Of a DNA stretch of 24,423 nt, positions 20,248 to 23,142 are shown piece after piece. Location: positions 70,183 through 94,605 of IMG/VR virus record IMGVR_UViG_2029527005_000001. One strand, 5' to 3'. Source of the DNA: a virus. Position 1 is the first letter of the stretch. Each line of letters starts with the position of its first letter. The position numbers were made by a program, and so were the translations under genes. Below the pieces are notes generated by a model that worked only from the letters and a program-made list of their open reading frames with translations, was not told the origin of the DNA and searched no databases.

Positions 20248-20256
20248 CATAAAATC
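20248..20256 (-). promoter_or_regulatory. Candidate late promoter GATTTTATG
   Basis: Overlaps the base and U-tract of the upstream hairpin; 29 nt upstream of ATG 20219. Exact repeat of the motif at 1789 and 7582. Confidence 0.55.
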
Positions 20257-20280
20257 AATGAGGGCCGAAGCCCTCACTGA
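20255..20280 (-). terminator. Intrinsic terminator with cUUCGg tetraloop
   Basis: Minus strand UCAGUGAGGGC-UUCG-GCCCUCAUUGA followed by UUUU; contains the stop of the 138-aa ORF. Confidence 0.8.
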
Positions 20281-20690
20281 TTGGTGTTTTGTTCGTGGAT
20301 ATCGTTGAAACCTTGGGCGGCTTTTTGCTTGCTGAGTTCTTCCTGACGGTTGTGTTCTTCCGCGGCGGCTTTTTCCAACTCAACGCGCTCCTCTTCTCCC
20401 ATCATCATTCCCTCTAATAACTGCTCAGAGTGACCGTGTGGGAGTTTGAGGTAAAGCTCCAAAGGCATGTGGTCTTTGATTTTCTTAACCGCAAAACCAC
20501 GACCTATCGAGCGGATAGACAAGTCGTGGTCATACACATGCTCTTCGGGAGAATAGGCAATCGACTGAAACGCAGTGGGTTTCTCCAGATCGATATATCC
20601 CATACGGACTTGGTACATCAACCGCATGTTAAGGATCATCTTATCTCGAGAAACGTGGCGGGTGTCTTTCCCCACCAAACCACGTATCAT
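20274..20690 (-). CDS. Chaperone partner ORF (gpT-like), probably expressed as the -1 frameshift extension of 20711-22438
   Basis: The frame is open from 20834, 48 codons before its first ATG. No convincing RBS. MPLELYLKLP followed by a charged helix resembles the C-terminal extensions of tail chaperone fusions. Confidence 0.7.
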   Translation of the reverse strand: MIRGLVGKDTRHVSRDKMILNMRLMYQVRMGYIDLEKPTAFQSIAYSPEEHVYDHDLSIRSIGRGFAVKKIKDHMPLELYLKLPHGHSEQLLEGMMMGEEERVELEKAAAEEHNRQEELSKQKAAQGFNDIHEQNTNQ

Positions 20691-20710
20691 TGCTCGGTAC
20701 TGATCAGTCT

Positions 20711-22438
20711 CTATTGAGAAAGTGCCGAGAGGGCTTCTTGCCTTGCATTCTCGCCAACCTTCGACCGTCCAGTATACGTCAGGTTGGCCAGGGTAAAAAA
20801 CGCCGACATGATGTTGATAGGCGTATAACCCAGGTCATCGTACGCATCCGAATGACTACCACATTTCTCACACGCGTAGTTCGCCAGACCCACAAACGTT
20901 TTGGACATGAACGGATAGTGCTTGATCACGGCCTGTACCAGGTTGGTCGCCATCACGTCGTTATCCATGATGATGTCCATAATACCCTGGTTAAACTGCG
21001 TAGGGTCTTGTTCACGACGACGAATGATCACCGGCTGACCATCGGTGTTTGCCGGCGGCATGATGCGGTATTCAGCCACATAGTGCAGGTAGTCCGTCCC
21101 CACCAGACCGTTCAGGAACTCTTCGCGTTTACCGAAATACTCTTCTTCGGTCATCGCCTGTTCACGGATCTTGTTCAGCTCTTTCTGCACCACATCACTG
21201 AAGAAGGCTTCTGCTTCAAAGCTTTCTGTCAGCGACGGTACGCCAAGGATGAAGCAAGCGCTACGGTTTTCGTTCCACACCGGTTCGATCTCGTGCTTGA
21301 AGTCCGCCTTGTCAATGAACTCCAGCGACTCTTCGCGAGAATACTTGCGAGAGAAGTTCATCATGTTGGCGTAAGCCGCAGACTCTTCCGGTGTATCCAG
21401 CCATTTACGGTCAATCACCAACAGGGTTGGGTCAATGACGTCCTGACGGGTCCAGTCGCAGCTTTCTGAACCCAGGCAGCGCAGGTTGAAGTTAACCCCG
21501 TGCGGGTAGAACAGTTCCAGCAGCGAACACGCCATGGTGTTGATGTCCGTGATGCGAATCACGTCTGCCAGCTCGTCGAAGTCAGAAGTGTCTTTGACGC
21601 TGCACATAATGATTTTGTCACGGATGAACTGCCACACCACACGAATGGCGGCGATGTTGGCCAGCGCAGGCAGGTTCTGGGAAACCGTACGCACGTGGCC
21701 ACGCACTGAACGTGCAATTTTGTCAATCAGCTCACCAGCTTCCAGACGACCAGGCTTGGCATAGCGGAACGCCATGTAGGAGTTGCGCAGCAGCAGATCG
21801 TAGTTGTACGGGTCATTACTGACGCTCAGCGAAGTACGGCGCATGTATTCACTGAGTTTAAAAGTACCACGATCACGACTCGGCACCAGACCGTTGATGT
21901 CACCGGTGGCGATATCAGTGGTGCGTTGCATCTGGTTGGTCAGACCCGGCTCGCGCACAACCGGATAGTGCAGCAGCAGAGGATCACCCAGATTGGTAAT
22001 AAAGGAATAGATGGTCATCTGACGCGCGTCGGCTTCTTTGAGATCGATGTCCGGCATGCGTTCTGCAACGTACTCTTCCCAGGCGGCGATCTGCGCCTGA
22101 ATCTGACTGCGAGTAATGCCTTCTTTCTGCAACTGCTTGTCATTCATCTGAGCCATCTGCTTGGCGGCGGTGTAATTCTGCCACAGCTCTTGCTCATTAC
22201 CCACACGTTCGTAGGATTCTTTGTTCAGACCGATAAAACCATTGACCCAGGTCTGGTTAGGATCGTTCATGTCGAACTGACCTTGAGCCTGCGACTTCGG
22301 CTTCAGGATTTCATGCGCCAGCGTGGTATCCGCAGTTTGCACGTCTTGCGGCGTTACCGGCTTTTTCGGTGCAGGCGCGGGTGTGTTCTGGTGCTCGGCT
22401 GCAGCAGCTGCCATGCGCTCTTCCAGGTTGTCAGACAT
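20711..22438 (-). CDS. Putative tail-assembly / baseplate-hub chaperone-like protein with Cys motifs, 575 aa
   Basis: TAATG-coupled, GAGG RBS. Contains C-x5-C (RCLGSESC), CxxC (CEKCG) and C-terminal PINIMSAFF, a layout like T4 gp26/gp51-type and myophage tail chaperones. Function is inference. Confidence 0.6.
   Translation of the reverse strand: MSDNLEERMAAAAAEHQNTPAPAPKKPVTPQDVQTADTTLAHEILKPKSQAQGQFDMNDPNQTWVNGFIGLNKESYERVGNEQELWQNYTAAKQMAQMNDKQLQKEGITRSQIQAQIAAWEEYVAERMPDIDLKEADARQMTIYSFITNLGDPLLLHYPVVREPGLTNQMQRTTDIATGDINGLVPSRDRGTFKLSEYMRRTSLSVSNDPYNYDLLLRNSYMAFRYAKPGRLEAGELIDKIARSVRGHVRTVSQNLPALANIAAIRVVWQFIRDKIIMCSVKDTSDFDELADVIRITDINTMACSLLELFYPHGVNFNLRCLGSESCDWTRQDVIDPTLLVIDRKWLDTPEESAAYANMMNFSRKYSREESLEFIDKADFKHEIEPVWNENRSACFILGVPSLTESFEAEAFFSDVVQKELNKIREQAMTEEEYFGKREEFLNGLVGTDYLHYVAEYRIMPPANTDGQPVIIRRREQDPTQFNQGIMDIIMDNDVMATNLVQAVIKHYPFMSKTFVGLANYACEKCGSHSDAYDDLGYTPINIMSAFFTLANLTYTGRSKVGENARQEALSALSQ
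20753..20801 (-). promoter_or_regulatory. Candidate -1 programmed ribosomal frameshift signal
   Basis: GCG UUU UUU (U6 at 20795-20800), spacer ACCCUG (6 nt), then stem GCCAACCU/AGGUUGGC (20788-20781 pairs with 20760-20753) with an inner GAC-GU/AC-G-GUC extension. The -1 frame is open into the downstream ORF. Confidence 0.65.
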
Positions 22439-23142
22439 TATGCTTCCTCTTTATCGTTCAGTACAGCGTGCGCTTCAGCAGCTTCGTCACCCAGTACTTC
22501 TTCTGCGTCGACGTTAGCCGGCGTAGCGTACTTAGGCGTGATGCGCGCCAGGCGAGTAAGGGCAACGTTGAACATTACCTTGCGGTAGTTCTGTTGCGGA
22601 TAGTGTTCTTTCTGGTAGGTGTTTACCAGTTCGGTGAACGGTGTGGCTTCTGCCATGATTTTCGGACAGATTTCAGTGATCAGACGTTCAGAGCGGAAGC
22701 CGGTATCCATCAACAGTTCCGGCGGCAGCCCCAGCAGGTTGTTTTCGCCTTGCAGCACAATGCTGATGGTTTGGGCGTTTTCGTTGAACTTCACCACGTC
22801 TTCATCAAACTGGTCGATGGTAGCGCGCAGCTCTTCGGAGATCACCAACTTGCCTTCGCGCTCCAGGATCTCCATGGTTTCAACCACAGACCCAACACCG
22901 GCGTCAACTTCGATGGTGTGATTAATCATTTTCATGACTTCATCAATCGAGAGTTCACGACCATTAATCACCTGTCCGCGCGCCAGCAGACCAGCTACGG
23001 CGCCATTGGTATAGCGTTCAAGACGTTCGCGACGAATACGTGCCTGAGCTGTTTCGGTTTTCGGTGCGCTTTTCTTGGCGGCACGTTCGCTACGTTTCTT
23101 TAAGTGCTTGGCCTGCATTTTGCTGCTTAATTTCTTGGTCAT
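22438..23142 (-). CDS. Hypothetical protein, about 234 aa, with a very basic N-terminus and acidic remainder
   Basis: Start re-called at ATG 23142 (MTKKLSSK; AAGAGAG upstream). The ORF-track start 23199 overlaps the divergent gene. Confidence 0.75.
   Translation of the reverse strand: MTKKLSSKMQAKHLKKRSERAAKKSAPKTETAQARIRRERLERYTNGAVAGLLARGQVINGRELSIDEVMKMINHTIEVDAGVGSVVETMEILEREGKLVISEELRATIDQFDEDVVKFNENAQTISIVLQGENNLLGLPPELLMDTGFRSERLITEICPKIMAEATPFTELVNTYQKEHYPQQNYRKVMFNVALTRLARITPKYATPANVDAEEVLGDEAAEAHAVLNDKEEA

Follow-up and report, generated by a model that had tools for sequence, protein, structure and literature searches.

The gene studied here, P0001, lies in a 24,423-nucleotide (nt) stretch of DNA, referred to as the window (positions 70,183 to 94,605 of IMG/VR record IMGVR_UViG_2029527005_000001), which comes from a 94.6-kb fragment of an uncultured virus. 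It encodes a 575-amino-acid (aa) protein (window coordinates 20711 to 22438, minus strand; phrog_4585) whose homologues include gp77 of phiKZ, gp47 of EL, and gp136 of 201phi2-1, and it is followed on the same strand by what gene callers see as a separate 138-aa open reading frame (ORF), P0002 (20274 to 20690; phrog_19747). The locus is most aptly seen as a giant gp26/gp51-like gene with a conserved -1 frameshift. A first-pass annotation of this DNA had proposed that a programmed -1 ribosomal frameshift makes both the 575-aa protein and a 721-aa protein from the one gene, and comparison of 47 loci strongly supports this, making such a shift highly likely on sequence grounds. That slippage of some kind, whatever its nature, produces the fusion is close to certain.

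The proposed shift site and the -1 frame of P0001

Codons 546 to 549 of P0001 read GCG UUU UUU ACC, with a run of six U's (20800 to 20795) in frame, and the candidate shift site, G_UUU_UUU, occupies 20795 to 20801 on the minus strand. The last upstream stop in the -1 frame is a TGA at 20837 to 20835, and the frame opens 34 nt before the shift site. It then remains open from the U run past the frame-0 stop (a TAG at 20711 to 20713, minus strand, 27 codons past the shift site), through the small ORF, and on to a TGA at 20276 to 20274, and it has no ATG, GTG, or TTG ahead of the ATG at 20690. The putative -1-frame extension (YPGQPDVYWTVEGWREC..., 20277 to 20795, minus strand) is 173 codons long, and its first 27 codons overlap the frame-0 tail. 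The shifted product would thus have 548 + 173 = 721 aa, with a predicted trans-frame junction of ...INIMSAFF-YPGQPDVYWTVEGWR. The description of the ORFs, the six U's, the -1 stops, the open frame, the 721-aa length, and a downstream stem in the first-pass annotation was correct throughout.

We propose that most ribosomes would stay in frame 0 and stop at the TAG at 20711, giving the 575-aa protein, and that a fraction would slip back one base at UUU UUU (20800 to 20795) and read 173 codons in the -1 frame, giving a 721-aa protein that shares the first 548 residues. At the site in the window, the tRNA-Phe on the second UUU may re-pair alone in the P site, or both tRNAs may slip with one mismatch at the G; the same product would come from either mode. 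In most lineages, classical tandem slippage of tRNA-Phe on U_UUU_UUN would be expected. The slip is probably assisted by a stem-loop, a putative stimulator with an 8-bp outer stem (GCCAACCU/AGGUUGGC) and three inner pairs, which spans 20753 to 20788 on the minus strand and begins 6 nt past the U run. Its minimum free energy is -19.3 kcal/mol (z = -3.2), with equal folding in 1 of 200 shuffles. The 6-bp core of the stem, CCARCC/GGYUGG, is paired in all 11 distinct sequences of the window clade, with A-U, G-U, and G-C exchanges at one position.

The arrangement can be set beside that of Escherichia coli dnaX, where a -1 frameshift at A_AAA_AAG with a 3' stem-loop gives the tau and gamma proteins. 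Both resemble a bacterial-type -1 cassette, in which 6 nt separate a homopolymeric heptamer from a stable hairpin, and in each two isoforms (predicted ones, in the window) come from one gene that adjoins replication genes. They differ in that the shifted dnaX product is the shorter one and an upstream Shine-Dalgarno (SD)-like element helps the shift, whereas in the window the shift would add 146 residues and no SD-like element was seen upstream of the shift site.

Comparison of homologous loci

The gp77 gene occurs throughout the phiKZ-like (Chimalliviridae) jumbo phages. Its representative in phiKZ is gp77 itself (phrog_4585, E 1e-197), tblastn of P0001 finds relatives of no more than ~33% identity in phiKZ-like jumbo phages (EL gp47, RisingSun gp53, Miami gp9), metagenomic relatives range from 99% down to 30% identity, and phiKZ gp77 as query matched 226 phage records. 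We compared 47 loci, comprising the window, 13 metagenomic contigs retrieved through exact protein look-up, 7 IMG/VR contigs, and 26 loci from named phages. The set of named phages consists of EL, RisingSun (counted also among the IMG/VR contigs), Miami, PDCC-1, Vibrio 2 TSL-2019, pTD1, AH04, VP4B, AerS_266, Yubaba, pEt-SU, OBP, PS1, D9, Eowyn, pEa_SNUABM_54, FishSpeaker, phiKZ, 201phi2-1, RSL2, SPN3US, RAY, Moabite, Wellington, JM-2012, Yong MS31, and KpLz-2_45. Identities among the loci run from 99% to ~20%, and the 45 loci at hand before two more (L048 and L049) were added form 16 clusters at <40% identity.

Relative to the long gene, the small ORF occupies the -1 frame, and not a random one, at every one of the 47 loci; over the 16 clusters the chance of so constant a frame is (1/3)^16 = 2e-8. 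A reading with two separate genes, the small ORF being translated by coupling, reinitiation, or a weak start, would make the -1 phase and the U run by-products of Phe-Phe protein conservation and compact gene packing. It accords with the deposited annotation, in which all 27 named-phage records keep the two ORFs separate (RAY and Wellington annotate them as overlapping). However, the phase is constant even though the gap between the frame-0 stop and the annotated small-ORF start spans -136 to +236 nt.

The codons at the shift site bear on the same question. A U run lies on the aligned Phe-Phe at 47 of 47 loci and has at least six U's at 45 of them. The heptamer is perfect, U_UUU_UU(U/C/G), at 35 loci; a further form, G/A_UUU_UUU, occurs at 10 loci, all in the window's own subclade. 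Phe-Phe is indeed conserved as protein even in T4 gp26, as the two-gene reading would have it, but the U-rich codons are retained here despite a strong preference for TTC: among the other Phe codons of the gene, TTT accounts for 0 of 18 in RSL2, 4% in loci L018 and L020, and 12% in OBP. Given Phe-Phe and the codon usage, the joint chance of the U run is P ~1e-13 (one member per cluster, 16 clusters), which bears out the U bias that the first-pass annotation had expected of homologues, and the codon comparison shows the U-rich codons at the shift site to be under selection against codon preference.

Two loci have lost one Phe and keep the -1 ORF. L048 (2700 to 2760) reads V-F-T, encoded GTT TTT ACA, with a run of five U's, and L049 (2040 to 2087) reads L-F-D, encoded CTT TTC GAT, with a run of four; the reduced runs, GUU UUU A and CUU UUC, amount to U_UUU or U_UUC. 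In L048 a -1-frame stop stands directly ahead of the run, which leaves a shift window of just a few codons.

At all 47 loci the -1 frame is already open ahead of the shift site and stays so to the end of the small ORF. Measured from the shift site, the extension is 149 to 187 aa everywhere, and the annotated small ORFs vary from 69 to 182 aa because they have no conserved start. The first ATG comes 25 to 140 codons past the shift site (86 in phiKZ, 115 in RAY, 124 in Wellington, 140 in JM-2012), and several lineages go on for >50 codons past the site without an ATG, GTG, or TTG. The -1 peptide is nonetheless conserved from its first residues, with the pattern [YRH]-P-x-P-x-D ... R-S-P-L, and 13 sequences with identities as low as 25% all share Y1, P2, S21, P22, and Y33. 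These invariant residues lie ahead of every possible start and, in the window, all upstream of the ATG. The frame-0 tail is conserved too (FFTLxxL...EALS), and both products are therefore probably used.

These start-less stretches of conserved sequence, 50 to 140 codons long in many lineages, together with the variable ATG, make the reading with two separate genes very improbable, even though an ATG lies 20 nt past the stop at the window and at loci L004, L007, and L008. The ATG at 20690 is not conserved among relatives, and a crude test found no SD-like motif ahead of it. The first-pass annotation had called this ATG devoid of a convincing ribosome binding site; the motif is indeed missing, but the point is a weak one, since the same test finds such a motif in only 12 of the 21 long window ORFs. 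We infer that the 138-aa ORF is mainly the C-terminal part of the extension and not an independent gene.

No locus was found in which the two frames are joined in a single ORF. There is none among 15 word-index matches (538 to 593 aa, in a searched range of 316 to 1007 aa). A profile search of 1.84 billion protein representatives gave 725 matches, and among the best 150 of these every protein listed with one matched stretch stops no more than ~45 residues from the Phe-Phe region, with no fusion; FF lies within the last 60 residues in 128 of 142 such representatives.

The arrangement is, then, far beyond chance. Several points nonetheless weigh against a ribosomal frameshift. The support is wholly comparative, and the heptamer in the window begins with G and fits X_XXY_YYZ at six of seven positions. 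The window ATG stands 20 nt past the frame-0 stop, so termination-reinitiation could yield a free 138-aa protein here. The covarying stem that the first-pass annotation looked for is kept in all members of the window clade, but its covariation is no better than that of shuffled controls, 143 of 500 of which score at least as high, as would follow from a region that is coding in two frames and hardly varies. Outside the window clade there is no common downstream structure, other clades having different hairpins or none obvious, and no Rfam family was matched.

The same protein could also arise by transcriptional slippage, in which the phage RNA polymerase would stutter on the template A run and leave an extra U in some mRNAs. 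Runs of 7 to 8 U's in some relatives (8 in RSL2, RAY, and JM-2012) would permit this, no downstream RNA structure is common to all clades, and these phages rely on their own multisubunit RNA polymerases. We consider this route improbable. The ribosome is favored over a stuttering polymerase by the conserved register in which the run meets the codons (U_UUU_UUN in frame), a register that is important for tRNA re-pairing and of no consequence to a polymerase; by the short runs in several lineages (six U's only in the window clade, four or five in two lineages), 4 to 6 U's being short for efficient stuttering by bacterial polymerases; and by the hairpin, which in the window clade is stable and keeps the classical spacing of 6 nt. 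What we infer from these comparisons is a ribosomal origin of the shift, its efficiency, and a working role for each product. A ribosomal frameshift is directly testable in phiKZ, for which both genetics and proteomics exist.

Fold and likely role of the gp77 family

A structural comparison with T4 gp26 and gp51, which the first-pass annotation had suggested, points to a fold for the larger part of P0001. Residues 205 to 554 (20777 to 21826, minus strand) match the predicted fold of the T4 gp26/gp51 (PF12322) domain. The AlphaFold model of P0001 has a predicted local distance difference test score (pLDDT) of 76 and a predicted template modeling score (pTM) of 0.74, and in the ESM Atlas this region matches a cluster with PF12322 in 84% of its members; the alignment takes in 255 of 260 residues at a template modeling (TM) score of 0.75 by the match and a root-mean-square deviation of 4.0 Å, both sides being predicted models. 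A search of BFVD returns the family itself first and then more than 10 baseplate hub subunit, assembly, or chaperone proteins (probability 0.95 to 1.0, E 3e-3 to 7e-2), and a language-model feature search gives PF12322 as a weak lead (rank 27, score 0.89, below the tool's 0.9 line). T4 gp26 and gp51 are both PF12322 proteins; the T4 record names gp51 a chaperone, and the NCBI name for the family is 'gp26 family baseplate hub assembly chaperone'.

The two families also resemble each other in their residues. Family-wide residues within 205 to 554 of P0001 are Cys321, Cys327, Cys523-x2-Cys526, and Phe547-Phe548, and the gp26 family shows C82, C84, and C187-x2-C190, with GLKEFF at its C terminus; two Cys pairs, the second within a CPxCG motif, followed by a conserved Phe-Phe at the C terminus, are thus common to both. 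From this shared layout the slip site would coincide with an ancestral Phe-Phe that closes the domain. In T4 gp26 the Phe-Phe is encoded TTC TTT, with the stop three codons later. T4 gene 26, like the gp77 family, has two nested products (26 and 26'), but its second product comes from an internal in-frame start. The gp77-family protein has, unlike T4 gp26 and gp51, insertions and an extra N-terminal part of 204 residues (21827 to 22438, minus strand), which is outside the PF12322-like match and consists of a low-complexity head, a helical bundle at 70 to 155, and a disordered stretch at 170 to 210. The 'ZipA-like' annotation of some relatives appears to rest on this low-complexity N terminus, and we reject it. 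We note that in T4 (NC_000866; gene 26 at 115802 to 116428) a TAATG overlap places the start of gene 25 in the -1 phase.

Other results weigh against membership in this fold family. The link to PF12322 depends on predicted structures. The T4-type PF12322 hidden Markov model (HMM) finds no match in P0001 or in 15 plus 10 family members, although 2 of the 10 distant members match below threshold (E ~0.3). An hhalign comparison with 44 gp26 homologues aligned the CxxCG motif alone (E 0.003, probability 10%), and comparison of the family alignment with T4 gp26 and gp51 only gave nothing beyond that motif. Scanned with the same HMM, the T4 record gives two matches (215 and 178 bits), and the window's own record and those of phiKZ, EL, SPN3US, and OBP give none, so that no canonical PF12322 gene is found in these four phages; this last point counts in favor of the fold assignment. 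Foldseek with the P0001 model found no match in the PDB at E <= 0.001, and VIA-align against 48,161 PDB chains matched helical bundles to residues 70 to 155 only (Z <= 6.8). We know of no solved structure of gp26 or gp51, which would explain the lack of a PDB match.

On balance, assignment of the gp77 family as a hub-assembly chaperone, with a two-isoform tail-assembly chaperone plausible, is the somewhat better supported reading of these models, and from the fold resemblance of residues 205 to 554 the two forms would probably act in baseplate or tail assembly. The genes around P0001 bear on a different role. Its neighbors in the window are a 253-aa protein of unknown function, a homologue of a virion protein (phrog_5038), an RNA polymerase subunit, a 201-aa protein of unknown function, and a DNA polymerase. 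The order is conserved: a virion RNA polymerase subunit (phiKZ gp80) and a ~300-aa virion protein (gp79) lie on one strand, and a 160- to 290-aa gene (gp78), the long gene, the small ORF, and a ~200-aa gene lie on the opposite strand, with a DNA polymerase gene close by. This synteny with DNA polymerase and RNA polymerase genes, and with a helicase in phiKZ, would suit a protein that is truly made by frameshifting but serves as a replication, transcription, or phage-nucleus factor and not as a baseplate chaperone, as would the lack of any Pfam match for P0001 and its family and of an assigned fold for the N-terminal 204 residues and the extension. The flanking RNA polymerase and 300-aa genes, however, encode virion (head) proteins in phiKZ, so the neighborhood is mixed, and such a role leaves aside the match of 255 of 260 residues to PF12322, which recurs in BFVD and weakly in the language-model search. 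We regard it as rather unlikely. As to the virion itself, gp77 appears in no passage returned by a term search of the text of the phiKZ virion cryo-electron microscopy atlas (PMC13250141), which also did not figure among the papers found to contain the word gp77, and the 201phi2-1 record marks gp138 as detected by mass spectrometry and does not so mark gp136.

The first-pass annotation had likened the pair to the G and GT tail-assembly chaperones of lambda. Long-tailed phages reportedly share a conserved -1 frameshift in their tail assembly chaperones, and the likeness of the gp77 family to lambda gpG/gpGT and P2 gpE/gpE+E' holds at the level of function. The gp77 family would, like them, have a short form and a long form with a common N terminus and a -1 slip close to the 3' end, at a heptamer rich in U or A (a T-rich run in P2). 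A frame-0 stop soon follows the slip, the arrangement is conserved beyond sequence, a tail-assembly role is likely, and the protein is not known from virions. Family membership does not hold. We found no sequence or fold relation to the lambda and P2 proteins; the short form has 575 aa and not ~140, about four times the size of gpG; the gene does not lie between tail-tube and tape-measure genes, and its neighbors include no tube or tape-measure module; and the extension has no match to the gpT family. Neither P0001, P0002, the -1 extension, nor 25 relatives match any Pfam family. It is a fair analogy, therefore, to call the P0001 pair a G/GT analogue in function and not a homologue.

The extension itself could not be assigned a fold, and its AlphaFold model, made alone, is poor (pLDDT 58, pTM 0.26). 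It might supply a second binding surface, as the T part does in lambda gpGT. Its language-model look-alikes are short portal-protein fragments (PF05133 and PF07230; score 0.95, 162 to 171 features), a signal that is probably driven by a long charged C-terminal helix. A broader proposal, which we put forward only tentatively, is that the gp77 family corresponds, in jumbo phages, to the T4 hub chaperones and the lambda G/GT pair alike. Its short form would then chaperone hub or tape-measure assembly and the 150- to 190-residue extension of the long form would recruit a structural partner, the ratio of the two being set by the efficiency of the slip. If so, the two-isoform logic of -1 frameshifting would have arisen independently in an unrelated chaperone fold and be universal in Chimalliviridae, and there would be a hint that T4 gene 26/26' reaches the same purpose by another route.

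Annotation of the gene pair and its transcription unit

We found no description of a frameshift in the gp77 family in the phiKZ, Chimalliviridae, or jumbo-phage literature, in a search that left subscription journals mostly uncovered. If true, the shift would give the core genes of nucleus-forming jumbo phages their first assigned recoding event, and it would correct the annotation of the gene pair in at least 226 deposited phage genomes and 725 protein clusters. The pairs concerned include phiKZ gp77 and gp76.4, 201phi2-1 gp136 and gp135, SPN3US gp39 and gp40, and RAY gp267 and gp266; phrog_4585 (P0001) and phrog_19747 (P0002) have no function attached. A role as baseplate-hub assembly chaperone would be a first functional handle for a conserved protein labeled hypothetical or 'ZipA-like', and it would extend the pattern of two frameshift-linked tail-chaperone forms to a different fold and to myoviruses of the T4 kind, in which, to our knowledge, no such frameshift was previously known.

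In phiKZ (NC_004629), gp77 is at 71903 to 73504 and PHIKZ076.4, annotated as 80 aa, at 71442 to 71684. From T_TTT_TTT in gp77, the -1 ORF that holds PHIKZ076.4 extends over 165 open codons, the first 86 of which include no ATG. The deposited annotation of PHIKZ076.4 thus probably misses half of the coding sequence, and the predicted trans-frame junction is ...IDMLSTFF-YFGGLEVKPDGVVNDLR.

When the phage collection was searched at the nucleotide level, the window had no close relative in it. Immediately upstream of P0001, the stop of the 253-aa gene (the phiKZ gp78 homologue, phrog_28183) overlaps the P0001 start in TAATG (22436 to 22440, minus strand), and from this overlap the three reading frames would form one tightly coupled unit. 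A scan for promoters and terminators gave nothing exceeding shuffles. Directly 3' of the -1 ORF stop, a hairpin that was read by eye and missed by the simple terminator scan, GAGGGC-UUCG-GCCCUC (20260 to 20275, minus strand), has a perfect stem and is followed by a U-rich tract, and it probably marks the end of the transcription unit. The hairpin continues into a GATTTTATG motif at 20248 to 20256 on the minus strand.

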